The position numbers and the translations under genes are program-made. Positions 269 to 33,750 of a stretch of DNA of 64,000 bases are shown one piece after another (the first letter of the stretch is position 1; each line of letters starts with the position of its first letter). The notes beneath the pieces are model-generated. The model made no database searches and was not told where the DNA came from. It saw only the letters and a program-made list of their open reading frames with translations. Origin of the DNA: Oscillospiraceae bacterium (lineage in GTDB: Bacteria; Bacillota; Clostridia; Oscillospirales; Oscillospiraceae). The stretch spans positions 17,154 to 81,153 of the forward strand of contig JAFXYJ010000043.1 in assembly GCA_017541825.1 (NCBI GenBank), read 5' to 3'.

Positions 269-3200
269 ATGAAGAACAGTCTGAAACGGATCACAGCCAT
301 GCTCCTTTGCGTGGTGATGTGCGTGTCCATGCTCCCCGTGAGCGCGCTCGCCGGCGACGAACCGGACGCGGAGACGGAGGAGCAGGGAGCCGCCGCCGTC
401 CTGCCCGAACCGCAGGAGGACGAGCCGGAGGAGCCTCAGGGCGCGCAGATCGGCGAACCGGAGCCGGACCCGGAAACCGAGCCCGCCGGGGAACCGGAGG
501 AGACTCCTGCCGAAGAACCGGAGCCCGAACCGACGGAGGAAGCCGAAGAAGCTTTGGAGACCGAACCGGAAGCCGGGCCGACCGACGAACCCGGGGAGAT
601 CCCCGCCGACGAGCCGACGGACGAGCCCGTCGAGGAACCGGCGGACGAGCCGACGGACGAGCCGACGGACGAGCCCGTCGAGGAACCGGCGGACGAGCCC
701 ACGGAGCCCGACGAGCCCACGGAGCCCGACGAGCCCACAGAGGCCGACGAGTCTGCAGAGGCTGTGGAGCCCGACGAGCCCATGCGCGGCGGGACGAGAG
801 CCGCGGCCTCCGGCACCTGCGGTGATAATCTGACCTGGACGTTTTTCGACAACGGCCAGCTGACCATCAGCGGCAGCGGCGCCATGGACGAGAGCGGACT
901 TACGCCATGGTACAGTTATCAGTATCAGATCAAATATGTTTCGATCAGCGAGGGCGTTACGACGCTGCGGGCGGCGGCTTTTCCGAATTGCTCCGCATTG
1001 ACGACCGTCAGTTTGCCGAGTACTCTGCGATCCATCGGGGAAGGCGCGTTTATCGGCTGCCGCGCCCTTACAGAGGTGACGATCCCCCAGGGCGTGACAT
1101 CCATCAGTCCGCAGACTTTTTCCGGCTGCAGGGCGCTCGCGAGCGTGACGATCCCGGATTCGGTGACGTCGATCGGAAGAAGGGCTTTTTATGAATGCTA
1201 CGCCCTTACCGAGGTGACGATCCCCGGGCATGTGACTTCGATCGGCAGTGAAGCCTTTTGGGCTTGTTCCGGGCTGACAAGCGTCACGATCCCGGACAGC
1301 GTTGAGACCATTGCTGATGGAGCGTTCTATTTTTGCAGAAACCTGCAGAGCATAGAGCTCCCGTCGACGCTGACTGCCCTCGGGGCGAATGCACTGCGGT
1401 CAACAGCTCTGACGAGCGTGACCATTCCCGCCGGTATCACATCGTTGAGCGACGGGCTGTTTGTCGACTGCCAACAGCTTACGAATGTAACTATCCACTC
1501 CGGCGTCACCTCCATCGGCAGCGCCGTTTTCTCCAACTGCACCGCGCTGCAGTCCGTGACGATCCCGGCCAGCGTCACATCAATCGGAGAACTTCCGTTC
1601 CTTCAGTGCTCCGCGCTGACAGCCATCAATGTGGTGAGCGGGAATCCCGCCTACCGCAGTGTGGACGGCGTCCTTTTCACTGCTGACGGGACAACGCTGC
1701 TGGTGTATCCCGCCGGCAAGACCGAAACGTCCTACATTATTCCCGAGGGCGTGACCGCCGTCGGTGACTCCGCCTTCTCTTTTGCTGAGGCGCTCACGAG
1801 CGTGACAATCCCGGTGAGCGTTGTGAGCATCGGCAACGAGGCTTTCGGCGGTACGGGGCTGACAAAGGTGTTCTACGGCGGCACTGAGGAGCAGAGGGAA
1901 GGGATCACCTTCAGCGGGGGAGGTCACTCCCAGATAAACAATGCCAATTGGAATTATGTTCAGGAATCAACGTTCGTCGCCGAGGGCGAATGCGGCGACA
2001 ACCTGCACTGGACGCTGGACGAGAACGGCCTGCTGACCATCACCGGTACCGGGGACATGTACGACTATACGTCCAACAGCGACGACAAGCCCTGGGCAGA
2101 CTATGCCGACGACATCAAGGCCATTGTCGTTTCCTCCGGAGTGACCGGCATCGGCAACTATGCATTTTCGTCGCTTGCCGATCTGATAAGCGTTTCGATC
2201 GATGACGGCGTGACGCGCATTGGGGAAGGCGCGTTCAGTACCTGCGATTCCCTCACGAGCGTAACGATCCCCCGGGGTGTGAACGAGATCAACCGGGATA
2301 CGTTCAGAAACTGTACAGAGCTCGTGAGCGTGACGATCCCGGACAGCGTGGCGAGCATCGGCAACAGTGCTTTTTACGACTGTGACGGGCTTGACGCGGT
2401 ATATATCAATGATCTTACAGCCTGGCTTGGGATCAGCTTTTCAAACTTTTATTCCAACCCGCTTTATTACGCGCACGATCTGTATGTGAACGACACATTG
2501 CTTCAGGAACTTGTTATTCCGGACGGAATAACAAGCATCGGTATTTATGCCTTCTATAACTGCAGTAAGCTCACGAGCGTAACGATCCCGTCAAGCGTGA
2601 CGAGTATCGGCGAGTCTGCTTTCTCCGGCTGCAGCGGACTGACGAGCGTGACGATCCCGTCGGGCGTGACGAGCATCGGCAGCTGGGCCTTCTCCGGCTG
2701 CAGCGGGCTGACGAGCGTGACGATCTCGTCGGGCGTGACGAGCATCGGCAGCGGGGCCTTCTCCGGTACGGGGCTGACGAGCATAACGATCCCCGATGGT
2801 TTGACAGGCATCAGCAGCCAGGCCTTTTACGATTGCAGCAGTCTGACGAGCGTGACGATCCCGGTGAGCGTTGTGAGCATCGGCAACGATGCCTTCTCCG
2901 GTACGGGGCTGACAGAGGTGTTCTACGGCGGCACCGAGGAGCAGAAGGAAGAGATCACCTTCAGCGGGACAGGACACACCGAGATACGCAACGCTACTTG
3001 GCATTATGAGCAGGGAGCCTCCATCGTCGCCGAGGGAGAATGCGGTGAGAACCTGCACTGGACGCTGGATGCCGACGGTGTGCTCACCATCTCCGGCACC
3101 GGGGAGATGTATAATTATAACGGTGATGATAATCCATGGAATGAGTACACGACATCGATCAAGTCGATTGTTGTCAACGAAGGTGTTACCAGCATTGGAG

Positions 3201-6200
3201 ATTATGCTTTCTATGAGTGTCATCTTCTGGCGAGCATCACTATAGCGAATAGTGTGTTCAGCATAGGGAAATACGCATTTGCGAGTTGCTCTTCACTAAC
3301 AAGCGTCTCGATCCCTTATGGAGTGACAAGCATTAAGGATTCTGCGTTTTTTGCTTGCACGGCTCTGAGCGACATCTCGATACCGAACAGCGTAACCGTC
3401 ATTGAGTGTTCCGCCTTCCAAGGGTGTGCCTCGCTAACAAGTGTTTCGCTTCCTGAGAGTGTGATCTCCATCGGGGATGCCGCGTTCTTTTCCTGTACTT
3501 CTTTGACGGACGTTATTATACCGGAGAGCGTTTCCAGTATTGGGGATTATGCTTTTAGGGCTTGTTATTCTCTTACATTCGTTAGTATACCGGATGGTGT
3601 GACTGGCATTGGGGTTCTTACATTTGATGCTTGCCGTTCTCTGACGAGCATAACGATTCCAAACAGCGTAACGTACATTAGTGGCGGCGCCTTCTCGGGG
3701 TGTTCTTCTTTGGCGGATATTATTATTCCAGATAGCGTGACTAGTATTGGGGATAATGCATTTAGCAATTGCTCCTCTTTGACTAGTATTTCGATACCCT
3801 CCGCCGTTACAAGCATTGGCAATTTCCCGTTCAGAGGCTGCACGGCTTTAACTGCCGTTTTAGTGGCAGAAGGAAACGAATATTATTACAGTGACGGAAT
3901 ATGCTTGTATAACAACGAAAAAACTACCTTGATCTTTGTTCCCGAAGGAGTTTTGGGAGAGCTGCGTATTCTTCTAACCACTACAACAATTGATACTGCT
4001 GCGTTTTATCATTGTTCCTCATTAAATAGTGTCACGATTCCTGACAGCGTGACAAGAATAGAGATCAATGCTTTTCTCGAGTGCGCATCGTTAAGGACAG
4101 TGCACTATCTTGGCACTTCAACACAAAGGGGCGCCATCTCCATCGGACGGGGTAACGATTTACTAACCAATGCGACATGGTATTGCGTGATTGCTTCCGG
4201 ACCTTGCGGAGATAACCTCATTTGGAAGCTGGATGAAGGCAACTTGATTACTATTTCCGGAACAGGGGAGATGTACGATTATTCATCTGCCGAAAACGCC
4301 GCATCGCCTTGGTATAGTTTTTGCCGTAGTATAAAAAAGGCTGTCCTCGATGATGGAGTGACGAGCATTGGGGATTATGCCTTCTATAACTGTTCTGCTC
4401 TGACAGATATCATGCTCCCGGATAGTGTGATACGCATAGGAAATGCTGCATTCTATAATTGCGGAGGTTTAACTAGAATAACGATCCCCGATAATGTGAT
4501 AGCTATCGGAGACAGTGCTTTTCGTGCATGCCAAGCCTTAACGCATATCGCGATTCCGAGCGGTGTTATCAGCATAAGCAATTCTGCCTTTTTGACCTGC
4601 ACTTCTTTGAAAAGCGTTACTATTCCGGACAGTGTTACCAGCATTGGTGAATATGCATTTGGAGGATGCTTTTCTCTGACGAATATCACCATTCCGAACA
4701 GTGTAACCAGCATCGGGGATTGGGCGTTTTATCATTGTTCTTCATTGACGAGCATCAGTATTCCGGATGGTGTCACCAATATTGGTGATCGGGCTTTTTA
4801 TCTTTGTTCTTCATTGACGGACATTTCAATCCCGACCGATGTAATCAGTATAGGAGAATCAGCCTTTTATGGTTGTTCTTCCTTGGAAAGCATTTCGATC
4901 CCGGCTGGTGTAACCGCAATAGGGGAATCAGCTTTTGAAGGATGCACCGCTTTGACAGGCTTCACGATACCGGACGGTGTAACTGTCATTAACTACAAAG
5001 CCTTTTGCAATTGCTCTGCCCTCACGAGCATCACGATCCCGTCTGGTGTGACAAATATAGGGGAAGAAGCCTTTGGCGGCTGCAGTTCGCTGACCAGCGT
5101 ATTCTTTGAAGGTAATATGCCGGACATCGACAATACCGCGTTTACCGGCGTCGAGGCGACGGTGTATTATCCCTGCGGAGACGATACATATAACGAGCAA
5201 TCAATACAGCCGTATGGCGGAACGTTAATATGGAATAGAGCCCCCCACACACCCGGCGAGGCAGTGAAGGAGGACGACGTCGCACCTAACTGCACGGAAG
5301 CGGGCCACTATGATATGGTCGTATACTGCGCCGTCTGCGGTGGGGAGCTCAGCCGCGAGACAATCACGACCGGCGCAGCCCTCGGCCACACGGAGGCCGT
5401 CGACGAGGCGGTGGCGCCGACCTGCACGGAAACCGGCCTGACGGAAGGCTCGCACTGCTCGGTATGCGGCGAAGTGCTCGTGGCCCAGGAGGTCGTTCCC
5501 GCGCTCGGCCACACGGAAGTCACCGATGAAGCAGTGGCGCCAACCTGCACGGAGACGGGCCTGACGGAAGGGGCACACTGCTCGGTGTGCGGCGAGGTGC
5601 TCACCGCGCAGGAGACGATCCCCGCCCTCGGCCACACGGAAGTCACCGATGAGGCGGTGGCGCCGACCTGCGCGGAGACGGGTCTGACGGAAGGCTCGCA
5701 CTGCTCGGTGTGCGGCGACGTGCTTGTTGCGCAGGAGGTCATTCCCGCCCTCGGTCACAAGCCCGGCGAGCCGGTCATCGAAAACATGATCCCCGCGACG
5801 GCCGAAGCCGCCGGCAGCTACGAGGAGGTCGTATACTGCGCGGTCTGCCATGCGGAGCTCAGCCGCACCCTGAAAACGCTCATCCATATCGAGACCGCTC
5901 CCACGCTGGACCGGGATTATCTGGTCTTGACCGTCGGCGCCGATGAGGACGTCACACTGTCCGTGTGCGGCGTGGCGGACGAGTGGCTGCCCTTCGTCGA
6001 ATGGAGCTCCAGCGACGACAATGTCCTCACCGTGGAGGGCGGCCGCCTGACGGCAGTGGCCATGGGCACAGCCGACGCGATCGCGCGGCTAGATACCGGC
6101 GAGACGGAGTACATCCTTCGCTGCCGGGTGGACGTCATTGAGAACACCACGGTCGCTGAAGACATCGAATGGCGCGAGAACGGCGCCGTGCGTCTGACCT

Positions 6201-8128
6201 CGACAAAAGCCACGGTCCAGCTGTTCAAGACCGATTACACCCGCATCCAGATCATTCCGGTCCTATCGCAGAATCTGCCGCAGAATATGCGCGGCACGGG
6301 CGTCGCCATTGAAAGCGCGAGCTTTACCTCCCCGGCGGCAGCGGCGCTCTTTGACCTTCGGGTCGTGGACGACCGCACGCTGGAGATCGTGCCCACCGAG
6401 TCGGCGCTGAGCGCGCCCAAGCAGGTCAAGTCCAAATACACGACCGCCGTGACGGTCACGATCGACGGCCAGGAATTCACCACCGAAAAGAAGCTCACCC
6501 TGACCGTGAAAAAGAGCCTGCCCACGATCAAGGCCAAGGCCGTGAAGCTCAACAGCTTCTTTGCCGGCGACACGCAGCCGATCGTCTTCACCGGCGGCAC
6601 GGTGACGGCTGTGCGGCTCGCCGACGGCAGGACCGTGCCCGAATGGATCGCGCTCAGTGAGGACTGCAGGAGCATCGCTTACACAGGAACGCTCAACGCC
6701 AAGAACAGCGGCAAGCTGTATCTGACGGCGACGGTAGCGGGCTGGGCTGTGGAGCGCCCGGTGACGGTGTCGGTCGGCAGCGCGAAGACCGCGCCGACGA
6801 TCAAGCCGAAGGCGGCGACCCTGACGCTGTTGCCTGTCGGCGCGAACCATGTGAGCACCATTTTCAGCGTATCCCCGGCGGTATATACCGACGCCGAGCG
6901 CTTCCCGGTGACTGTGAGCTGCGTTACCGAGGGCGGCACGGCCAGCACGGCGCTGGATTGCTCGGTCGATGGGAACACACTCACCGTCCGGGCGGGGGCG
7001 GCGCTCGACACCGCCGCAGCGCACACCTTCAAGGTATACCTGTGCGTGGCAGGGGTTGAAAAGGCCGTCACCGTCAAGACCCTGCCCAAAGCAACACCAA
7101 CAATTACGGTCAAGGCCGGCGGCGCCTTCGACACGGCGATTCCGGGCAGCCCGATCAAGCTGACGGTCAGCATCCCCCGCGTATACTGCTGTGAAGCTCT
7201 GTCCGTACAGGTGCGGAAGATCGGCTCCGCGGGCGAAGTGCAGCACTTTGAGGAGGCGCTCGATGTTCGCGCCGAGCCCACAGCCGGCGGCGGCAGCATC
7301 GTCCTGTCCCTGACAGATCCCGCGCTGCTGGAGCCCGGCTGTGAGTGCAGGGCGATCGTCACGGCGACGCTCGAGGGAGGCGCTGCGGTCCGGTCCGCCC
7401 CGGTCAAACTGACGATCAAGCGCTCGGCTGCGTCCAAGGTCAAGCCCGCCGTCAGCCTCAAGGTCTCCGGCGGCATCGACGTGCTGCGGCCGGGCACCGG
7501 CGTCACGATCCGCCCGACGGTGAAGAACTACTACGGCGCGGCGCAGCCCGAGCTGACGGTGTACTACAAGCAGGGCAAGACCTGGACGCCCCTGACCCGA
7601 GACGAGAGCGGCCTGCGCTTCGCCCTGGGCGAAGAGACCGTGCTTGAAGCGGAATACTCCGCCGAAAACGGTTTCGTCCTGCGCCGTGCCGGCAAACTGG
7701 ATCACACGAAGAAATACGCGGTCAGCGTCGGCTATACCATCGACGACAGCAGCGAGGCCAACAACGGCGTATACGCGAGCAAGATCACGGCGATCACGGT
7801 CAAGCAGGGGAAGGTCAAGCTCACCCAGAGCGCCAAGACGGTGCAGCTGCTGCGGGACGACCGGTACAGCGAGGGCGTGGTGACGATCAGCTTCGCGGAC
7901 GGAACGCTGGCGGGGATCGACCGTGTGGTGCTGGTCTCGCCGAAGAACAAGGCGGGGGAGACGCTCTTCGAGCTGGAGGATCTGGGCTTCGGGCGGTACG
8001 CGATCCGCTACAGCGGCGGGCGCGTCACGACGACCAAGGCGGCCACGGTGAAGCTGCAGGTGTTCATGAAGGGCAGCACCGCGGCCAAGGCCAACGTCAC
8101 GATAAGCGTCAAGATCAACATAGGATAA
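269..8128 (+). CDS. Giant secreted modular surface protein (2619 aa): signal peptide, acidic P/E/T-rich linker, four BspA-type LRR arrays, Cys-motif repeats, Ig-like (Big_2-type) domains
   Basis: The N-terminus [29 protein letters not shown] looks like a signal peptide. There are many units of about 23 aa of the form VTIPxSVTSIGxxAFxxCxxLTSV (LRR_5/BspA-like). Four header modules read CG(D/E)NLxW..G.L.I(S/T)G(T/S)G.M. Three repeats of 41 aa each carry C-x10-C-x2-C. The C-terminal third is beta-rich and Ig-like. I saw no LPXTG, SLH or choline-binding anchor. Confidence 0.9.
   Translation: [2619 protein letters not shown]
2621..2758 (+). repeat. Two near-identical in-frame 69-bp tandem repeats (one LRR unit each)
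   Basis: Unit 1 (2621-2689) and unit 2 (2690-2758) differ at only 3 positions by eye. A degenerate third unit follows. Confidence 0.85.
5378..5746 (+). repeat. Three in-frame 123-bp tandem repeats encoding a 41-aa Cys-motif module
   Basis: ALGHTE(A/V)(V/T)DEAVAPTC(T/A)ETGLTEG(S/A)HCSVCG(E/D)VL(V/T)AQE(V/T)(V/I)P starts at 5378, 5501 and 5624. Related degenerate units flank the array. Confidence 0.85.
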
Positions 8129-8191: not shown

Positions 8192-12107
<3,916 letters not shown>

Positions 12108-26191: not shown

Positions 26192-27403
26192 ATGGAAAAG
26201 ATCAAAATGCGCAGCCCCATCGTGGAGATCGACGGCGACGAGATGACGCGCATCCTTTGGCAGGAGATCAAATCGGAGCTGCTCGCTCCCTTCGTAGAGC
26301 TCAACACCGAGTATTACGATCTCGGCTTGCCCAACCGGGACGCCACCGGCGACCGGGTGACCGCGGAGGCCGGGGAGGCGATCCTGCGCTGCAGAGTCGG
26401 CGTCAAGTGCGCGACCATCACCCCCAATGCCGAGCGCATGAAGGAGTACGGCCTGCGCGAGATGTGGCGCAGCCCCAACGGCACGATCCGCGCCATCCTC
26501 GACGGCACGGTGTTCCGCGCGCCCATCGCCTGCCCGGTGCTCAAGACCCTGATCCCCGGCTGGATAAAGCCGATCACTGTGGCCCGCCACAGCTACGGCG
26601 ACATTTACCGGGACACGGAGCTGCGCGTGGAGGGCCCTGGCACGGCGGAGCTGGTGTTCACGGCCGCCGACGGGAGCCAGGAGCGCCGGACGATCTACGA
26701 GTTCGAGGGTCCCGGGGTGCTCCAGGGCTGCTACAACAAGGACAGCTCCGTGGAGAATTTCGCCCGCTCCTGCTTTGAGTACGCCCTGAGCGTCGGACAG
26801 GACCTGTGGTTCTCGGCCAAGGACACGATCATGAAGCAGTACGACGGCCTGTTCAAGGACACCTTCCGCCGCCTGTACGAGGAGGAATACCGGGAGCGCT
26901 TCGAACAGGCGGGGATCACCTATTTTTATACGCTGATCGACGACGCCGTCGCGCGGCTGGTCCGCTCGGAGGGCGGCATCGTGTGGGCGCTCAAGAACTA
27001 CGACGGCGACGTGATGAGCGACCTGATCTCCACTGCCTTCGGCTCCCTGGCTATGATGACCAGCGTGCTGGTCAACGCCGACGGCTGCTACGAATTCGAG
27101 GCGGCCCACGGCACCGTCACGCAGCACTACTACCGCCGTCTGCGGGGCGAGCGCACCTCCACCAACCCGGTGGCGACGATATACGCCTGGTCCGGCGCTC
27201 TGCGCAAGCGCGGAGAGCTCGACGGCGACGCGGCGCTGACGGGCTTTGCCGACGCGCTGGAGACGGCGGTCATGGACACGATCTGTGCGGGCACCGTCAC
27301 CGGCGACCTGGCCGCGCTGATGGAGCCCCGGCCCGCGGGAGTGGACAGCGAGACCTTCCTGGCCGCCGTACGCGCCAGACTGGAGAAGACCCTGGGAGCA
27401 TAA
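26192..27403 (+). CDS. icd: NADP-dependent isocitrate dehydrogenase (homodimeric, eukaryote-like subtype)
   Basis: MEKIKMRSPIVEIDGDEMTRILW..., ATITPN, NGTIRAILDGTVFR, KNYDGDVMSD and HGTVTQHY. AGGAGG RBS. The track start at 26096 is an extension. Confidence 0.9.
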   Translation: MEKIKMRSPIVEIDGDEMTRILWQEIKSELLAPFVELNTEYYDLGLPNRDATGDRVTAEAGEAILRCRVGVKCATITPNAERMKEYGLREMWRSPNGTIRAILDGTVFRAPIACPVLKTLIPGWIKPITVARHSYGDIYRDTELRVEGPGTAELVFTAADGSQERRTIYEFEGPGVLQGCYNKDSSVENFARSCFEYALSVGQDLWFSAKDTIMKQYDGLFKDTFRRLYEEEYRERFEQAGITYFYTLIDDAVARLVRSEGGIVWALKNYDGDVMSDLISTAFGSLAMMTSVLVNADGCYEFEAAHGTVTQHYYRRLRGERTSTNPVATIYAWSGALRKRGELDGDAALTGFADALETAVMDTICAGTVTGDLAALMEPRPAGVDSETFLAAVRARLEKTLGA

Positions 27404-27436
27404 AAAACTCTTTCCCCTCCGGGGGAGGGGATTGGC

Positions 27437-27465
27437 TTGACAAAGCACGGCGATAGTGATAGATT
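27437..27465 (+). promoter_or_regulatory. Sigma-70-like promoter driving the riboswitch leader
   Basis: TTGACA (27437-27442), a 17-nt spacer, then TAGATT (27460-27465). Confidence 0.6.
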
Positions 27466-27486
27466 GAATGGCAACAATTGATTACG

Positions 27487-27668
27487 TTCGAGTGCCGTCA
27501 CTTCCCCGCGGGAAATGACGGAGAATAGGGAATCCGGTGCGAATCCGGAACGGTACCGCCACTGTGAGCGCGTTAGACCGTACATGCGGTGTGAGCCAGC
27601 CATTGGGGAGACCTGAGAAGGCGTTGTACGATTGAAGAGGCGTAAGTCAGGAGACCTGCTTGAACGGT
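27487..27668 (+). promoter_or_regulatory. Cobalamin (B12) riboswitch aptamer
   Basis: The conserved core reads AATAGGGAATCCGGTGCGAATCCGGAACGGTACCGCCACTGTGAGC, including the B12 box GCCACTG. The 3' element AGTCAGGAGACCTGC is also present. Both are hallmarks of the RF00174 class. I set the boundaries by eye. Confidence 0.85.
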
Positions 27669-27726
27669 CGGCTTCGTGTCTTCCGGGAATGAGGACTCTG
27701 AGCGCAATCTGTCACGCGGAAATACG

Positions 27727-27759
27727 GCCGCGGCAGTTTTTCGGCTGCCGCGGCTTTTT
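27727..27759 (+). terminator. Riboswitch expression platform: intrinsic attenuator terminator
   Basis: Perfect 10-bp stem GCCGCGGCAG / CTGCCGCGGC with an 8-nt loop, followed by TTTTT. It lies 52 nt before the ATG at 27811. Confidence 0.8.
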
Positions 27760-27810
27760 ATGTTCTTGTCAGGTCAACCCCCTGAAATATAATGTACGGA
27801 GGCATTTTTC

Positions 27811-30510
27811 ATGAGAGCAATGAGAAAGATCTTGCCCTTCCTGCTTACCCTGTGCATGCTGCTGAGCCTTTCCGGCTGCGGCAACACGGCTGCCGCGCCT
27901 GCCGCGCAGGAGAGCGAGCCCGCTGCCGAGGCGCAGGCCCCTGCCGCCCCTGCGGAGGAGCCCGCCGCCGAGGAGGAGGACGAGGAGAATTATGAGACCG
28001 GCGACGCGTCTCTGGACGACCCCCTGAACGCAGACGGCATCGGCGAGACCGAACTGCTGGTCGTGAGCTTCGGCACCAGCTTCAACGACAGCCGCCGCCT
28101 CACCATCGGCGCCATCGAGCGCGCCCTGCAGGCGGCCTTCCCCTATGTCAGCGTCCGCCGCGGCTTCACCGCCCAGATCATCATCGATCACGTGGCGCGC
28201 CGTGACGGCGAGGTCATCGACAACGTCACCGAGGCCCTGGACCGCGCGGTCAGCAACGGGGTCAAGACGCTGGTCGTGCAGCCCACCCACCTGATGAACG
28301 GTCTGGAGTACGACGAGCTCGTCGGGATCCTGGCCGGCTACTCCGACGCCTTTGAGCGCGTCGTGGTGGGAGAGCCCCTGCTGACCTCCGACGACGACTT
28401 CGCGCGCGTGGCTCAGGCGCTGGTGGACGCCACCGCCGAATACGACGACGGCGAGACCGCCATCTGCTTCATGGGCCACGGCACCGAGGCCGAGTCCAAC
28501 AAGATCTACGCCCAGATGCAGGAAGTCCTGACCGGCATGGGCATGGCCAACTACTTCGTCGGCACCGTCGAGGCCGAGCCCTCCCTGGAGGACGTGCTGG
28601 CGATGGTCGATGCGGGCGACTACACCCGCGTGGTGCTGCGGCCGATGATGGTCGTGGCGGGCGACCACGCCAACAACGACATGGCGGGCGACGAGGAAGA
28701 CTCCTGGAAGAGCGCCTTTGAGGCCGCGGGTTACGAGGTCGAGTGCGTCGTCGAGGGCCTGGGCGGCATCCCCGAGATCCAGGAGCTCTATGTCGAGCAC
28801 GCCAAGGCCGCCTTCGGCGAGCTGGACGACGATTACTTCACCGGCGACGCGTCCCTGGACGATCCTCTGAACGCCGACGGCATCGGTGAGACCGAGCTGC
28901 TGGTCGTCAGCTTCGGCACCAGCTTCAACGGCAACCGCGTCGCCACCATCGGCGCCATCGAGGGCGCCCTTGCCGAGGCCTTCCCCGAGGCCGGTGTGCG
29001 TCGCGGCTTCACCGCGCAGATCATCATCGACCACATCCTCGAGCGCGACGGCGAGGTCATCGACAACGTCACCGAGGCGCTGGAGCGGGCCGTGGCCAAC
29101 GGCGTCAAGACGCTGGTGGTGCAGCCCACCCACCTGATGAACGGCTTCGAGTATGACGAGCTGATCGGCATCCTGGCCGGTTACATCGACGATTTCGAGG
29201 CGATCCAGGTCGGCGAGCCCCTGCTGACCTCCGACGACGACTTCCAGCGCGTGGCGCAGGCCATGGTCGACGCCACCGCCGCGTATGACGACGGCGAGAC
29301 CGCCATCTGCTTCATGGGCCACGGCACCGAGGCCAAGTCCAACGGCGTTTACGCCAAGATGCAGACTCTGCTCACCGACATGGGCAAGACCAATTACTTC
29401 ATCGGCACCGTCGAGGCCGAACCCTCCCTTGAGGACGTGCTGGCCCTGGTACAGGCGGGCGACTACAAGCGCGTCGTGCTCCGGCCGATGATGGTCGTGG
29501 CCGGCGACCACGCCAACAACGACATGGCCGGCGACGAAGAGGATTCCTGGAAGACCGCCTTTGAGGCGGCCGGCTACGAGGTCGTGTGCGTCATCGAGGG
29601 CCTGGGCGGCATCCCCGAGATCCAGCAGCTCTACGTCGAGCACGCGCAGAGAGCCTTCTACGCTCTGGATGAGGACACCGGCGACGCGGCCAGGGACGAT
29701 CCGCTGAACGCCGACGGCATCGGCGAGACCGAGCTGCTGGTCGTCAGCTTCGGCACCAGCTTCAACGACAACCGCGTCGCCACCATCGGCGGCATCGAGA
29801 ACGCGCTCAAGAAGGCATACCCCGACTACAGCGTGCGCCGCGGCTTCACCGCGCAGATCATCATCGACCACGTCCGGATCCGCGACGGCGAGATCATCGA
29901 CAACGTCACCGAGGCCCTGGAGCGGGCCGTGGCCAACGAGGTCAAGACGCTGATCGTGCAGCCCACCCACCTGATGAACGGCATCGAGTACGATGAGATC
30001 ATGGGGATCCTGGCCGGCTATTCCGACGCTTTTGACAAGATCATCGTCGGCGCGCCGCTGCTGACCTCCGACGACGACTTCCAGCGCGTGGCGCAGGTCC
30101 TGGTCGACGCCACCGCCGAATATGACGACGGCGAGACCGCCATCTGCTTCATGGGCCACGGCACCGAGCACGAGTCCAACGGCGTGTACGCCAGAATGCA
30201 GCAGCTGTTCACCGACATGGGCAAGACGAACTATTTCGTCGGCACCGTGGAGGCCGAGCCCTCCCTTGAGGACGTGATGGCGCTGGTGCAGGCCGGCAAT
30301 TACAAGCGCGTCGTGCTCCGGCCGATGATGGTCGTGGCCGGCGACCATGCCAACAACGACATGGCCGGCGACGAGGAAGGCTCCTGGAAGACCGAGTTCG
30401 AGGCCGCGGGCTACGAGGTCATCCCCGTGATCGAGGGCCTGGGCGGCATCCCGGAGATCCAGCAGCTCTACATCGAGCACGTGCAGGCCGCGATCGACGC
30501 CGCTGCCTGA
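27811..30510 (+). CDS. Lipoprotein with three tandem CbiK-type (class II chelatase, sirohydrochlorin cobaltochelatase-like) domains
   Basis: Lipobox MRAMRKILPFLLTLCMLLSLSGC, followed by an A/P/E linker. Three units of about 280 aa each contain LLVVSFGTSFN, VVQPTHLMNG.EY, ICFMGHGTE and RPMMVVAGDHANNDMAG. Both CbiK metal-ligand histidines are retained in every unit. Confidence 0.85.
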   Translation: MRAMRKILPFLLTLCMLLSLSGCGNTAAAPAAQESEPAAEAQAPAAPAEEPAAEEEDEENYETGDASLDDPLNADGIGETELLVVSFGTSFNDSRRLTIGAIERALQAAFPYVSVRRGFTAQIIIDHVARRDGEVIDNVTEALDRAVSNGVKTLVVQPTHLMNGLEYDELVGILAGYSDAFERVVVGEPLLTSDDDFARVAQALVDATAEYDDGETAICFMGHGTEAESNKIYAQMQEVLTGMGMANYFVGTVEAEPSLEDVLAMVDAGDYTRVVLRPMMVVAGDHANNDMAGDEEDSWKSAFEAAGYEVECVVEGLGGIPEIQELYVEHAKAAFGELDDDYFTGDASLDDPLNADGIGETELLVVSFGTSFNGNRVATIGAIEGALAEAFPEAGVRRGFTAQIIIDHILERDGEVIDNVTEALERAVANGVKTLVVQPTHLMNGFEYDELIGILAGYIDDFEAIQVGEPLLTSDDDFQRVAQAMVDATAAYDDGETAICFMGHGTEAKSNGVYAKMQTLLTDMGKTNYFIGTVEAEPSLEDVLALVQAGDYKRVVLRPMMVVAGDHANNDMAGDEEDSWKTAFEAAGYEVVCVIEGLGGIPEIQQLYVEHAQRAFYALDEDTGDAARDDPLNADGIGETELLVVSFGTSFNDNRVATIGGIENALKKAYPDYSVRRGFTAQIIIDHVRIRDGEIIDNVTEALERAVANEVKTLIVQPTHLMNGIEYDEIMGILAGYSDAFDKIIVGAPLLTSDDDFQRVAQVLVDATAEYDDGETAICFMGHGTEHESNGVYARMQQLFTDMGKTNYFVGTVEAEPSLEDVMALVQAGNYKRVVLRPMMVVAGDHANNDMAGDEEGSWKTEFEAAGYEVIPVIEGLGGIPEIQQLYIEHVQAAIDAAA
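28000..30510 (+). repeat. Three in-frame tandem repeats of about 840 bp (one CbiK domain each)
   Basis: The unit start motif GGCGACGCG (G-D-A) occurs at 28000, 28843 and 29680, giving periods of 843 and 837 bp. Long stretches are identical at the protein level. Confidence 0.85.
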
Positions 30511-30604
30511 AAGCTGCGTACGAACGTTTGAGTCCATGGGTTTTCCCCGGCGGATGCTCCGCCGGGGAAAATCTTCCGTCGATTGAAAAAGAGGATGACG
30601 CGTT

Positions 30605-31582
30605 ATGAAAAAAAGCATCGCACTCCTTCTGGCGCTGCTGCTCCTGGGCGGACTGCTCGGCGGCTGCGGCGGCGGGACCGCGTCGGAAGCGCCCGCAGCC
30701 ACGAACACCCCCGCGCCAACGGAAGCGCCCGCGCCCACGGAAGCCCAGGCGAGCGCGGAAGACCCTGCGCCTGCCGAAGCCCCTGCGGAGGATGCTCCGG
30801 CGGGGGTCGCCTCCGGCGCGGACACGATCGAATATGAGGACGTGGTGGAAGAGGGCATGGTGCCCGTCACCGCCGAACATATCAAAAACGGCGCCTACGA
30901 CGTGGAGATGGTCTCCAGCTCCGCCATGTTCAAGGCCGATCACTGCAGACTGATCGTCGAGGACGGAGAAATGAAGGTCGTGCTCTACATGACCAGCGGC
31001 GCCTATCTCTACATGTACGCCGGTACGGCCAGAGCCGCGGCTGCGGCGCCCGAGGAGGACCGCATCCCGCTCGAGCCCGGCGATGAGGAAGGATACAATC
31101 AGTTCGTGCTGCCCCTCCGCGCGCTGGACGACGGCGAGAGCTTTGCCGCCTTCAGCAAGAAGAAGGAGCTCTGGTACGACCGCACACTGCTCTTCCGGGC
31201 AGACAGCCTGCCGCTGGAGGCCTTCAGGGAGGGATTTCTGACGACGCCGGAGAGTCTCGGCCTCGCCGACGGGGAGTATACCGTGGAGGTCACCCTCTCG
31301 GGCGGCTCGGGCAGAGCCAGCGTCAAATCCCCGGCCCGCATGTTCGTCGCCGGAGGCGCCGTGACAGCGGAGATCATCTGGGGCAGCTCCAACTACGACT
31401 TCCTGCTCGTGGACGGCGTCCGGATCGAGCCGGAGACCCTGGAGGGCGGGTCCACCTTCCGCGTCCCGGTGACGGTGTTCGACCACCCCATCGGCATCCA
31501 GGCGGACACGACGGCCATGAGCACGCCGCATCTGATCAGCTACTCCCTGCGTTTTGACAGCGCCTCCGTACAGGGCGCGTAA
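30605..31582 (+). CDS. Lipoprotein of unknown function, co-transcribed with the triple-CbiK lipoprotein
   Basis: Lipobox MKKSIALLLALLLLGGLLGGC, followed by a P/A/E/T linker. Two beta-rich halves share a G-x-Y-x-V-E-(M/V) ... S-(S/G) ... V-x-(D/G)-G pattern. I could not recognise a family with certainty. Confidence 0.7.
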   Translation: MKKSIALLLALLLLGGLLGGCGGGTASEAPAATNTPAPTEAPAPTEAQASAEDPAPAEAPAEDAPAGVASGADTIEYEDVVEEGMVPVTAEHIKNGAYDVEMVSSSAMFKADHCRLIVEDGEMKVVLYMTSGAYLYMYAGTARAAAAAPEEDRIPLEPGDEEGYNQFVLPLRALDDGESFAAFSKKKELWYDRTLLFRADSLPLEAFREGFLTTPESLGLADGEYTVEVTLSGGSGRASVKSPARMFVAGGAVTAEIIWGSSNYDFLLVDGVRIEPETLEGGSTFRVPVTVFDHPIGIQADTTAMSTPHLISYSLRFDSASVQGA

Positions 31583-31588
31583 CGCTCT

Positions 31589-31635
31589 GCCGCGCGGATA
31601 CAGCACGACTGCATCCGCGCGGCAAATTTAATTTT
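31589..31635 (+). terminator. Intrinsic terminator closing the riboswitch-controlled two-gene unit
   Basis: Perfect 11-bp stem GCCGCGCGGAT / ATCCGCGCGGC with a 13-nt loop, followed by AAATTTAATTTT. Confidence 0.6.
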
Positions 31636-31716
31636 GCGCCCTCGGAAATTTATGTTGCGTTCTCCGTATAGAATTTGTTATAATCACAGCATCACATATA
31701 AAAGGAACGGTCAGCT

Positions 31717-33750
31717 ATGCTTGGTATCGGAATTGACACTGGCGGCACCTGCACGGATGCGGTGCTCTATGACTCCGCAACGGGAAAGATCCTGGCCTCC
31801 GGCAAGGCGAACACGACCAAATCCAATCTGGAGATCGGCATTGCCAACGCCATGGACAACCTGCCCCGGGAACTGATCGAAAAGGCAGAGACCATTTCAC
31901 TGTCCACGACGCTGGCCACCAACGCCAGCCTTGAAAACAAGGGCGCGCGGGCGAAGCTCCTGCTCCTGGGCTTCCAGGAGGATCTGATGGAGCATCTGAA
32001 AAAGGCCTTTGAATCCTACGGCATGCACGACATGACCCGGTTCATCACCATGGAGGCCAAGGCGGAGGGCGTGTTTTCCCAGCCGATGGATCCCGACTGG
32101 GAGATGCTCCGCGCGAAAGCGCCGGAATGGTTCGCCGACAGCGACTCCATCGGCGTCGTCCAGCTCTACCCCAAGGCCAACGGCGGCCGCTTTGAGCTCA
32201 CCGCGCTCAAGCTCCTGCAGGAGGAGCTGGACATCCCGATCACGATCTCCTACGATATCTCCAACGAGATCGACATCATGAAGACCTGCGCGGGCACGCT
32301 GCTCAATGCCATGCTCATCCCGCTGGTGGCGGAGTTCATGAACGCCATCCGCCATGTGTGCGCCCGGCGCGGGCTGAACATCCCCATCACGATCATCCTG
32401 AGCAACGGCACCATGTCCCCGGCGGACGAGGCGCAGCAGCATCCGGTGGACACGATCCTCTGCGGGCCGGCGGCCAGCGTGGTCGGCGGCAGCGTTCTGG
32501 CCGGCGAGGAAAGCGGCATCATCGTGGATATGGGCGGCACCACCACCGACATCGCGATCGTCCGCCGCGGCATTCCCGCTCCGGCCGTGGGCGGCATCAA
32601 GATCGGCCGCTGGCGCACGATGGTGGAAGGCATCTATGTGGATACCATCGGACTGGGCGGCGACAGCGGCATCCTCTGCTACGATCATGTGCTCTCTCTG
32701 GACGCCGTGCGGGCCATCCCGCTCTCGCTCCTCGCCGCGGAGTATCCCGGCGTGCTGCCGAAGCTGGAGGATCTCCGCATGCGGAAGGACCATGCCTCCC
32801 GCTATGACTATGAGTTCTATGTCCTCATCAAGGACATCGCCGGCAAGACGGGCTACAGCAAAGAGGAACAGGCTCTGTGCGAGGCGATCAGGGCCGAGCC
32901 CCTGACCCTCACCGAGCTGGCCGAACGGCTCGACTGTGAGAGACGGCGGCTGCCGACGGCGCGTCTGGAATCCGACGGCGTGGTCATCCGCAGCGGACTG
33001 ACGCCCACGGATATGATGATCCTCAACGGAGATTTCGACCTCTACGACGGCAGGGCCGCCAGGATCGCCGCCGCGTATCTTGCCGACAGCGCCGAATGCG
33101 AGTTTGAACAGCTGCCCGGCAAGATCTACGAGCTGGTGGAGCGCAAGATGTACCACGCCCTCGGCCGGGTGATCCTGGGCCAGCGCTTCCCGAAAACGAA
33201 GGAGTTTGAAGACCCGGCCTATCTCACGCCCATTTTGGACGCGGCCTACAGCCAGGCGGTGCAGCGCGTGGACCATCCGGATCTTTATGCCGACGCGGAG
33301 GGAGTGCTGGAGCTCACCAGCCGTCTGCCGCTGATCGGCGTCGGAGCGCCGATCCACATCTTCCTGCCCCGGGTGGCCGCCCTCCTGGGCACGCGGGCCG
33401 TGGTGCCCGAGTACGCGGGCGTGGCCAACGCCCTCGGCGCCGTCGCCTCCAAGAAGCTTGCGCGGGAGCAGCTGAGCGTCATGGCCGTATACGAGCATAC
33501 GGTGCTCGTCGGCTATACCGTGGCCTATGAAGGCTCCCGGCGGTTCTTCAAAAAGAGAGAGGACGCGGTGGATTATGCCAGGGAGAACATCCTGCGGACG
33601 ATCCGCGTGAAAGCCGCCGAATACGGCATCACCGGCGAGCCGAACATCGAGCTCCTGATCGAGGACGACCGGGTCGGCGCGGGCAATACGGGGCTGATCT
33701 ACGCCATCAAGCTGACAGCCACGGCGACCCAGAGCGAAGAAGCGCGCTGA
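31717..33750 (+). CDS. Hydantoinase/oxoprolinase-family (ASKHA-fold) protein
   Basis: The N-terminus MLGIGIDTGGTCTDAVLYD is typical of the hydantoinase A N-terminus. A second phosphate motif, IIVDMGGTTTDIA, is present. Length 677 aa. Confidence 0.75.
   Translation: MLGIGIDTGGTCTDAVLYDSATGKILASGKANTTKSNLEIGIANAMDNLPRELIEKAETISLSTTLATNASLENKGARAKLLLLGFQEDLMEHLKKAFESYGMHDMTRFITMEAKAEGVFSQPMDPDWEMLRAKAPEWFADSDSIGVVQLYPKANGGRFELTALKLLQEELDIPITISYDISNEIDIMKTCAGTLLNAMLIPLVAEFMNAIRHVCARRGLNIPITIILSNGTMSPADEAQQHPVDTILCGPAASVVGGSVLAGEESGIIVDMGGTTTDIAIVRRGIPAPAVGGIKIGRWRTMVEGIYVDTIGLGGDSGILCYDHVLSLDAVRAIPLSLLAAEYPGVLPKLEDLRMRKDHASRYDYEFYVLIKDIAGKTGYSKEEQALCEAIRAEPLTLTELAERLDCERRRLPTARLESDGVVIRSGLTPTDMMILNGDFDLYDGRAARIAAAYLADSAECEFEQLPGKIYELVERKMYHALGRVILGQRFPKTKEFEDPAYLTPILDAAYSQAVQRVDHPDLYADAEGVLELTSRLPLIGVGAPIHIFLPRVAALLGTRAVVPEYAGVANALGAVASKKLAREQLSVMAVYEHTVLVGYTVAYEGSRRFFKKREDAVDYARENILRTIRVKAAEYGITGEPNIELLIEDDRVGAGNTGLIYAIKLTATATQSEEAR

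Follow-up and report, generated by a model that had tools for sequence, protein, structure and literature searches.

A cobalamin riboswitch-controlled pair of CbiK-type and NEAT-like lipoproteins from Oscillospiraceae, a candidate receptor module for corrinoid scavenging

The riboswitch-controlled unit and its two products

We analyzed a 64,000-nt stretch of DNA from an Oscillospiraceae bacterium (assembly GCA_017541825.1, contig JAFXYJ010000043.1), hereafter the window, whose coordinates are counted from its first letter. The subject of this study is a unit on the plus strand (27437-31637) in which a cobalamin riboswitch precedes the genes for two predicted lipoproteins, one composed of three tandem CbiK-type class II chelatase domains and the other, termed the partner, of two NEAT-like domains. 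An initial annotation, made from the letters of the window alone, had described a promoter, a riboswitch, an attenuator, two lipoprotein genes and a terminator, and had interpreted them as a candidate system for the extracellular capture of corrinoids or tetrapyrroles. Every one of these parts was located at or near the positions that had been assigned to it (Table 1).

Table 1. Predicted features of the unit, with coordinates in the window
Feature	Coordinates	Strand	Details
Sigma-70-type promoter	27437-27465	+	TTGACA-17-TG-n-TAGATT; 10/12 matches; extended -10 TG; 8 nt upstream of the riboswitch match
Cobalamin riboswitch (RF00174)	27473-27677	+	101.3 bits, E 3.5e-24, model positions 1-189 of 189; B12 box AGUCAGGAGACCUGC
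Attenuator (intrinsic terminator hairpin and T tract)	27726-27762	+	13-bp stem with 9 G-C pairs at 27726-27755, then TTTTTATG
Second promoter-like site	27766-27793	+	TTGTCA-16-TATAAT, 11/12 matches; between attenuator and start codon
ORF1, 899-residue lipoprotein	27811-30510	+	Signal peptide, lipobox LSGC, Cys23 (nt 27877-27879), Ala/Pro/Glu-rich linker of ~50 residues, three CbiK units
CbiK unit 1	28000-28836	+	Includes the family-specific N-terminal motif GDASLDDPLNADGIGE; AlphaFold pLDDT (predicted local distance difference test) 86.9
CbiK unit 2	28837-29658	+	84% identical to unit 1; His145/Glu175/His207 equivalents kept
CbiK unit 3	29659-30507	+	79% identical to unit 1
Intergenic hairpin	30538-30574	+	17 bp perfect, -31.3 kcal/mol, z -5.2, without U tract; between CbiK and partner genes
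ORF2, 325-residue partner lipoprotein	30605-31582	+	Lipobox LGGC (Cys21), Pro/Ala/Glu linker, two NEAT-like beta-sandwich domains
Partner NEAT-like domain 1	30890-31198	+	Residues ~96-198; AlphaFold model
Partner NEAT-like domain 2	31271-31555	+	Residues ~223-317; AlphaFold model
3' terminator-like hairpin and A/U-rich tract	31588-31637	+	15 pairs (12-bp stem and 3 further) at 31588-31624, -28.5 kcal/mol, z -4.6, then AAAUUUAAUUUUG

The leader of the unit passed the covariance model RF00174 over its full length (gathering score 31.5 bits), bearing out the riboswitch core with B12 box that had been proposed at 27487-27668, and it was the sole Rfam match above the gathering score in the whole 64 kb. 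The same riboswitch scored 171 bits with a model termed R1, a value that is no independent test, since the window is one of the seven training sequences of R1. The sigma-70-like promoter of the initial annotation was recovered by a promoter scan, which found three promoter-like sites in 27350-31750, compared to 0.5 expected from shuffled sequences. Approximately 50 nt downstream of the aptamer, a G+C-rich hairpin and T run were found where an attenuator had been placed (27727-27759), and this succession of aptamer, hairpin and T run recurs in 61 of 78 related leaders. The attenuator is the predicted terminator-type expression platform of the cobalamin riboswitch.

The first open reading frame (ORF1) has a GGAGG ribosome-binding site 8 nt before its ATG. 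Its product gave three full-length matches to the CbiK family PF06180 (760 bits in total), confirming the architecture of three tandem CbiK domains behind an LSGC lipobox, and it scored 644 bits against the NCBIfam model SiroCoChCbiK (cut-off 400), with the best stretch at residues 642-897. Both this protein and the partner begin with a basic n-region, a hydrophobic core and a lipobox cysteine, and are thus predicted to be lipoproteins. These signals are conserved across relatives, as a lipobox is found in at least 60 of approximately 72 related CbiK genes and a lipobox or other signal peptide in nearly all, while Cys21 of the partner is invariant in 40 homologues; the earlier description of the two products as exported lipoproteins is consistent with these predictions. 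Some members of the CbiK family (L005, 8001-10970, and L017) are without a lipobox and carry long N-terminal extensions, the region LKINGEAASLTAYNIGDVNFFQLRELGKALGF preceding the first CbiK unit in L005, and two multi-CbiK proteins (P0096 and P0098) carry PF07833 copper-amine-oxidase-N-like domains. The extensions and the PF07833 domains suggest alternative modes of wall anchoring.

The fold of the repeats was assessed with an AlphaFold model of unit 1. In a Foldseek search the model matched S. enterica CbiK (1QGO) with a template modelling (TM) score of 0.94 and a root-mean-square deviation of 1.6 Å, D. vulgaris CbiK(P) (2XVX) with a TM score of 0.93, and P. gingivalis FetB (9B86) with a TM score of 0.90, in agreement with the CbiK fold previously proposed for the repeats; FetB was also the best PDB sequence match to the CbiK domain (E 2e-45). 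According to SCOP, the chelatase fold shares a two-lobe architecture with BtuF-type (class III) binding proteins, although none of these ranked within the 50 best Foldseek matches of this model. The exported family has conserved residues of its own and an N-terminal motif, TGDAxxDxxxNxDxIG, features that cytoplasmic CbiK, FetB and CbiK(P) lack; the motif is probably flexible, because it was modelled with low confidence.

The metal-ligand histidines of S. enterica CbiK are His145 and His207 (PMC4063343). The initial annotation had located the pair in the motifs FMGHGTE and QPTHLMNG. The former indeed contains the His145 equivalent, but the histidine of the latter corresponds to His83 of the S. 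enterica enzyme, a conserved residue that is no metal ligand; the true second ligand, equivalent to His207, lies in VAGDHANND. All three units keep His145, Glu175, His207 and Phe10 (S. enterica numbering), and among 94 exported domains from approximately 80 species both histidines are invariant, Glu175 is present in 93 and Phe10 is conserved as well. A diverged single-domain exported CbiK (L061, 1393-2481; 58% identity) has His in place of Glu175 (VGVVHDG), and no riboswitch was detected upstream of it.

The 325-residue LGGC lipoprotein of the initial annotation was confirmed as ORF2, and its fold was recognized only by structure prediction, because Pfam and NCBIfam scans returned nothing meaningful and a profile search of PDB sequences gave only signal-peptide and linker noise. 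The AlphaFold model, built from 40 homologues (pLDDT 85.4), contains two beta-sandwich domains, and each of its top 37 Foldseek matches in the PDB is an Isd-type NEAT domain. Two-NEAT units, those of IsdB and IsdH, align with the entire partner, and IsdX1 aligns with a single domain at a TM score of 0.69. The modelled domains thus resemble the eight-stranded Ig-like beta-sandwich of NEAT domains, with TM scores of up to 0.69 on single domains. The Pfam NEAT profile (PF05031) did not match the window partner at E ≤ 1, although it touches 28 of 40 family members at that threshold (best 1.4e-6) and covers profile positions 3-118 of 119 in domain 2 of one relative, at 31.7 bits against a cut-off of 32.8. 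The partner is therefore described here as di-NEAT-like by predicted fold and not as a certified member of the NEAT family. NEAT domains are tetrapyrrole shuttles, as established for Isd, and ligate haem through a YxxxY motif on the last long strand. No canonical YxxxY was evident on the last strands of the two partner domains, where the conserved Tyr191 (WYDRTLLF) and Tyr313 (HLISYSLRF) have Leu or Phe at the +4 position, the register being approximate; a profile alignment of the partner family with an IsdA NEAT sequence gave a probability of 0.09 and no usable register. Four large proteins (P0249, P0260, P0266 and P0361; 1473-1965 residues) contain 7-11 copies of the partner NEAT-like domain and resemble multi-NEAT haem receptors.

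Distribution and gene order of the operon

A partner-alignment scan of species-representative genomes identified relatives in at least 555 genomes, mainly of Oscillospiraceae, Lachnospiraceae and Ruminococcaceae, with Agathobaculum butyriciproducens DSM 100391 (L050), Clostridiales bacterium CCNA10 (L052), Lachnospiraceae bacterium XBD2001 (L048) and Brotonthovivens ammoniilytica (L074) among the cultured carriers, and an exhaustive profile search for the partner family yielded 2387 clusters at 50% identity. The nearest named relatives of the 899-residue protein are from Oscillospiraceae (Dysosmobacter and Faecousia), and eight metagenome contigs carry an identical protein in the same context. 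A Clostridia-type locus with 47-57% partner identity also occurs in genome bins named Barnesiella intestinihominis, Flexilinea sp. and Bacteroides sp. (L012, L014 and L033), where mis-binning of contigs seems more likely than true occurrence in those phyla.

A genome-context survey, which had been suggested as a check of the initial annotation, covered gene order in 80 partner loci. The arrangement of riboswitch, exported CbiK gene and partner gene proved to be strongly conserved, and a BtuFCD-type importer directly follows in most relatives. The exported CbiK gene lies directly upstream of the partner gene in 74 of 75 evaluable loci, preceded by a cobalamin riboswitch in 68 of 71, and a Peripla_BP_2 gene lies directly downstream of the partner gene in 64 of 72, usually followed by genes for a FecCD permease and an ATP-binding cassette (ABC) ATPase. 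The permease has BtuC, and the ATPase the 'corrinoid ABC transporter ATPase', as the best NCBIfam match, which gives the conserved order riboswitch-CbiK-partner-BtuF-BtuC-BtuD. Rfam independently confirmed RF00174 in six of six diverse multi-CbiK loci, and model R1 found the riboswitch in the four-domain locus L091. The exceptions are L021, L061 and L072; the lack of a riboswitch in the first is explained by its place in a cbi operon, where cbiH and cbiJ immediately precede it, and the second is the diverged copy described above. Genes of cbi biosynthesis were found in the flanks of 26 of the 80 loci. One further locus (L071) has two cobalamin riboswitches back to back, at 8327-8538 on the minus strand and 8658-8860 on the plus strand, of which one faces the CbiK-partner-BtuFCD operon and the other faces minus-strand cbi genes (cbiC at 6280-6882, cbiD and cbiB).

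Natural fusions join CbiK to the partner (P0087, L029 and P0269) and the partner to Peripla_BP_2 (seven proteins). Since these fusions keep the order of the separate genes, CbiK-partner and partner-BtuF, they provide strong evidence that CbiK, the partner and the BtuF-like protein work together physically. A single-NEAT-like homologue was also found downstream of the distant CbiK gene of L009.

These data bear on the function implied by the database name, according to which the 899-residue protein would be an ordinary biosynthetic sirohydrochlorin cobaltochelatase, merely triplicated. The protein does score above the cut-off of the corresponding NCBIfam equivalog, and its homologues are annotated in their source records as 'sirohydrochlorin cobaltochelatase'. 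We consider this function scarcely credible, given that lipoprotein signal peptides occur family-wide and argue against a cytoplasmic location, that residues and an N-terminal motif specific to the family are absent from cytoplasmic CbiK, that the genes are linked and fused to those of NEAT-like and BtuF-like exported proteins, and that one operon (L006) sits inside a complete cbi cluster with its own separate 259-residue cytoplasmic CbiK. Naming the exported family 'sirohydrochlorin cobaltochelatase' in public records is a systematic annotation error, and since exported CbiK passes the biosynthetic equivalog, predictions of B12 prototrophy that use CbiK as a marker can be misled or inflated.

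The exported protein most commonly contains a single CbiK domain (71 of 75 loci), and copies per protein range from one to five, with two being frequent in Oscillospiraceae and three, four and five also occurring. Repeats within a protein are 93% identical in L002, 99% in L010 and 79-84% in the window, whereas domains taken from different species share 60-81% identity (63-76% where the window units are compared), and L006 is also among the proteins whose repeats resemble each other more than orthologous domains. This pattern indicates recurrent lineage-specific duplication or homogenization, i.e., concerted evolution, and together with the variable copy number it forms a receptor-like signature, as in multi-NEAT receptors. 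The initial annotation had also stated that no B12 transporter gene is adjacent. For the window this is accurate, as no BtuFCD-type or other B12 transporter gene was found anywhere in its 64 kb, and no adjacent Peripla_BP_2, FecCD and ABC genes share its riboswitch; as a trait of the system it does not hold, being peculiar to the multi-domain variant. The window unit is thus a derived form of a far commoner operon, in which the putative receptor module is amplified and stands alone.

Proposed function and alternatives

The initial annotation had viewed the pair as a capture or hand-off layer, and the genome-context survey makes that reading much stronger than it was from the window alone, through the conserved riboswitch and importer genes. 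We propose, with a probability of roughly 0.6, that the unit is a candidate receptor module of a Gram-positive corrinoid-scavenging pathway that is switched off by intracellular cobalamin, the chelatase-NEAT pair probably constituting an undescribed Gram-positive system for the capture of B12-like molecules. When B12 is scarce, the riboswitch leader would read through the terminator and both genes would be expressed. After export, lipid anchors and long flexible linkers would tether both products to the outside of the membrane. The three CbiK-fold domains would act as multiplied binding sites, holding a cobalt-tetrapyrrole in the inter-lobe cleft through the retained His/Glu/His site, with a cobamide, cobinamide or other corrinoid as the most likely ligand. 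The ligand would then pass to the di-NEAT-like partner, from there to a BtuF-type binding protein, and into the cell via BtuCD; in the genome of the window the importer would have to be encoded elsewhere. In this scheme we infer the identity of the ligand, binding rather than catalysis, the direction of hand-off and exposure beyond the cell wall.

Several observations weigh against corrinoid capture. To our knowledge, all characterized NEAT domains bind haem. The cleft of CbiK evolved for the planar sirohydrochlorin, and a cobamide carries a nucleotide loop. The importer components of relatives score below the NCBIfam equivalog cut-offs, and their BtuF-like protein has no sequence relative in the PDB and no NCBIfam match. 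Variants with at least three CbiK domains or a fused partner (the window, L005, L008, L009 and L091) keep the riboswitch and have no adjacent transporter. The strict retention of the His/Glu/His site is no less to be expected of an active enzyme than of a passive binder. Finally, it was haem or porphyrins rather than corrinoids that were detected with the characterized exported relatives, namely CbiK(P) of D. vulgaris and FetB/IhtB of P. gingivalis (PMC13065792, PMC12094164).

The conserved metal site would also serve an extracytoplasmic enzyme. Exported CbiK proteins might be active chelatases or dechelatases that, for example, insert Co2+ into metal-free or incomplete precursors released by neighbors, or exchange metals, with the partner and BtuFCD taking up the product. 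Invariant His145 and His207, near-invariant Glu175 and conserved Phe10 (residue roles from PMC4063343) are consistent with such activity, as are the close structural match to the S. enterica enzyme and the 41% identity of the window units to the cytoplasmic CbiK of a related cbi cluster, with which they share the same invariant motifs. Surface FetB shows Co and Mn chelatase activity on porphyrin in vitro (PMC13065792), and many carriers of the operon are B12 producers with cbi genes beside it. On the other hand, no extracellular pool of sirohydrochlorin-type substrates seems to be known in the gut, and the multiplication to two to five tandem domains, like the fusions with shuttle and binding proteins, is typical of receptors rather than enzymes. 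Catalysis is also compatible with corrinoid capture, as the metal site can equally ligate the cobalt of a bound corrinoid. We regard an enzymatic role as unlikely, if well worth bearing in mind.

The same residues could alternatively capture free Co2+ at the surface for B12 synthesis, in the manner of a metal-binding lipoprotein. Cobalt uptake systems are commonly controlled by cobalamin riboswitches (PMC7689651), a crystal structure of D. vulgaris CbiK(P) shows Co2+ at the corresponding histidine (PMC4063343; PDB 2XVZ), and cbi clusters lie near about a third of the surveyed loci, at the frequency given above. Free-cobalt capture is nevertheless very improbable, because the associated importer is of the FecCD/BtuC type, which serves B12, haem and siderophore chelates, and not a CbiMNQO, NiCoT or ABC-3 metal-ion system, and because the obligatory NEAT-like partner has a fold known for tetrapyrrole binding.

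That fold, together with the binding of haem or porphyrin by FetB/IhtB and CbiK(P), would also suit an Isd-like acquisition of haem or porphyrin, in which the B12 riboswitch reflects cross-regulation and does not indicate the ligand. In L002 and L010 the operon has a gene for a DtxR-family repressor nearby, but the position of this gene is not conserved, whereas about 96% of the evaluable loci, across families, have the riboswitch and the operon often lies within or adjoins cbi genes. It is on account of this near-universal riboswitch and these frequent cbi neighbors that haem acquisition appears very improbable. In addition, the canonical YxxxY was not evident in the NEAT-like last strands at the approximate register available, and D. 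vulgaris CbiK(P), according to Romao et al. 2011, reportedly binds haem between subunits via His96, a position occupied by Asp in the window units.

Relation to known capture systems

In its logic, the corrinoid-scavenging pathway proposed here resembles the Isd relay of S. aureus and B. anthracis (IsdB, IsdH, IsdA, IsdC and IsdX to IsdE to IsdF), in which repeated surface receptors deliver to NEAT shuttles, a Peripla_BP_2 lipoprotein and a FecCD-type permease. Isd is specific for haem, is regulated by Fur and iron, is anchored by sortase at LPXTG signals and has a NEAT-fold first receptor; in contrast, the window unit has a cobalamin riboswitch, predicted lipidation and a chelatase fold, and neither of its proteins has a C-terminal LPXTG sorting signal. 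A bolder version of the proposal would be a 'corrinoid Isd system' of gut Clostridia, the first NEAT-fold relay for a non-haem tetrapyrrole, whose front end is an exported cobaltochelatase active outside the cell, for example adding or restoring the metal of corrinoid or tetrapyrrole intermediates that neighbors shed in incomplete or metal-free form, before these are imported. We offer this version as speculative and rather doubtful; if true, it would make part of B12 assembly a community-level, extracellular process.

The Bacteroides proteins BtuG, BtuH, BtuJ and BtuK are riboswitch-repressed surface lipoproteins that hand cobamides to an importer (PMC13616437, PMC6143338) and, like the family described here, have multiplied into paralogues. 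They work at the outer membrane with BtuB, BtuJ is a jellyroll, and the folds of BtuG and BtuH differ from those of the window pair. The initial annotation had considered the pair unrelated in fold to BtuG and BtuH, and in line with this no BtuG, BtuH or BtuJ structure was among the Foldseek PDB matches of the CbiK or partner model, nor did Pfam or NCBIfam give such a match.

Exported CbiK proteins have been described in Gram-negative bacteria. D. vulgaris periplasmic CbiK(P) (2XVX/2XVZ) resembles the window units in being exported with intact catalytic residues, and differs as a single soluble periplasmic domain without tandem repeats, lipid anchor or the N-terminal motif; we know of no NEAT-like partner for it, none having been looked for. 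A partial precedent comes from Desulfovibrio, where cbiK-cbiL and btuCDF are jointly under the control of a B12 element (PMC545781). P. gingivalis IhtB/FetB (9B86) is likewise a CbiK-family surface lipoprotein, and the IhtB gene adjoins the ABC importer IhtCDE, but the protein is an outer-membrane lipoprotein with a TonB-dependent receptor, has one domain and is without the N-terminal motif. Expression of the iht operon is unresponsive to iron or haem starvation (PMC12094164), and FetB has been interpreted as a haem-binding or (de)chelatase protein that makes Mn-protoporphyrin IX (PMC13065792). The literature that we examined reports no NEAT-like partner for IhtB/FetB, and the accessible literature neither confirms nor denies a link of P. 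gingivalis iht/fetB to a cobalamin riboswitch. S. enterica CbiK, which shares the fold and the metal-site residues, is cytoplasmic and single-domain, is encoded in the cbi operon, and has neither a signal peptide nor a partner.

The initial annotation was aware of no described system of this type. The searched literature, in which subscription journals are thinly covered so that an earlier mention, e.g., in a comparative-genomics supplement, is possible, contains no description of the Clostridial system or of a NEAT-like protein under a cobalamin riboswitch; the statement must be qualified by the partial precedents in Desulfovibrio and P. gingivalis. Surface nutrient-capture relays and exported CbiK proteins are thus known; new, as far as the searched literature shows, are the present combination of parts, the way it is regulated and its wide occurrence in Gram-positive gut bacteria. 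Cobamide competition shapes gut communities, and Bacteroides is the only group in which surface capture is understood. For Gram-positive Firmicutes, extracellular capture is described in a 2026 review as 'entirely uncharacterized' (PMC13616437), and the operon, found in dominant butyrate-producing families that include some cultured carriers, is a concrete and testable candidate for such machinery. If the proposed pathway is correct, the ligand range of the class II chelatase and NEAT folds extends to corrinoids.

Several minor features of the unit and its surroundings were also recorded. The second promoter-like site would give a leader of only ~11-15 nt, beginning at the ribosome-binding site; its function is uncertain, and if functional it would provide riboswitch-independent basal expression. 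The hairpin between the two genes may set the ratio of the two products, stabilize the upstream mRNA, or act as a partial termination element. At the 3' end, where a terminator had been annotated at 31589-31635, we found a strong hairpin followed by an interrupted U tract; a simple terminator scan missed this structure on account of its long loop and that interruption. The gene that follows begins at 31717, with a promoter-like TATAAT region of its own. Long minus-strand ORFs across the unit (e.g., 27769-30885, 1038 residues) are regarded as high-GC artefacts, since strong family matches and conserved homologues were obtained for the genes on the plus strand. A foreign origin of the unit is not supported, given its GC content of 0.648 compared to 0.633 for the window and its shared context on the eight metagenome contigs. 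The flanking genes are unrelated to B12 and encode an isocitrate dehydrogenase upstream and a hydantoinase-family protein, electron transfer flavoprotein subunits and a nitroreductase downstream. Elsewhere in the window, a plus-strand ORF of 2619 residues (269-8128) consists almost wholly of BspA-type leucine-rich repeats (PF13306, 14 stretches, 1239 bits) and probably encodes a giant surface protein.

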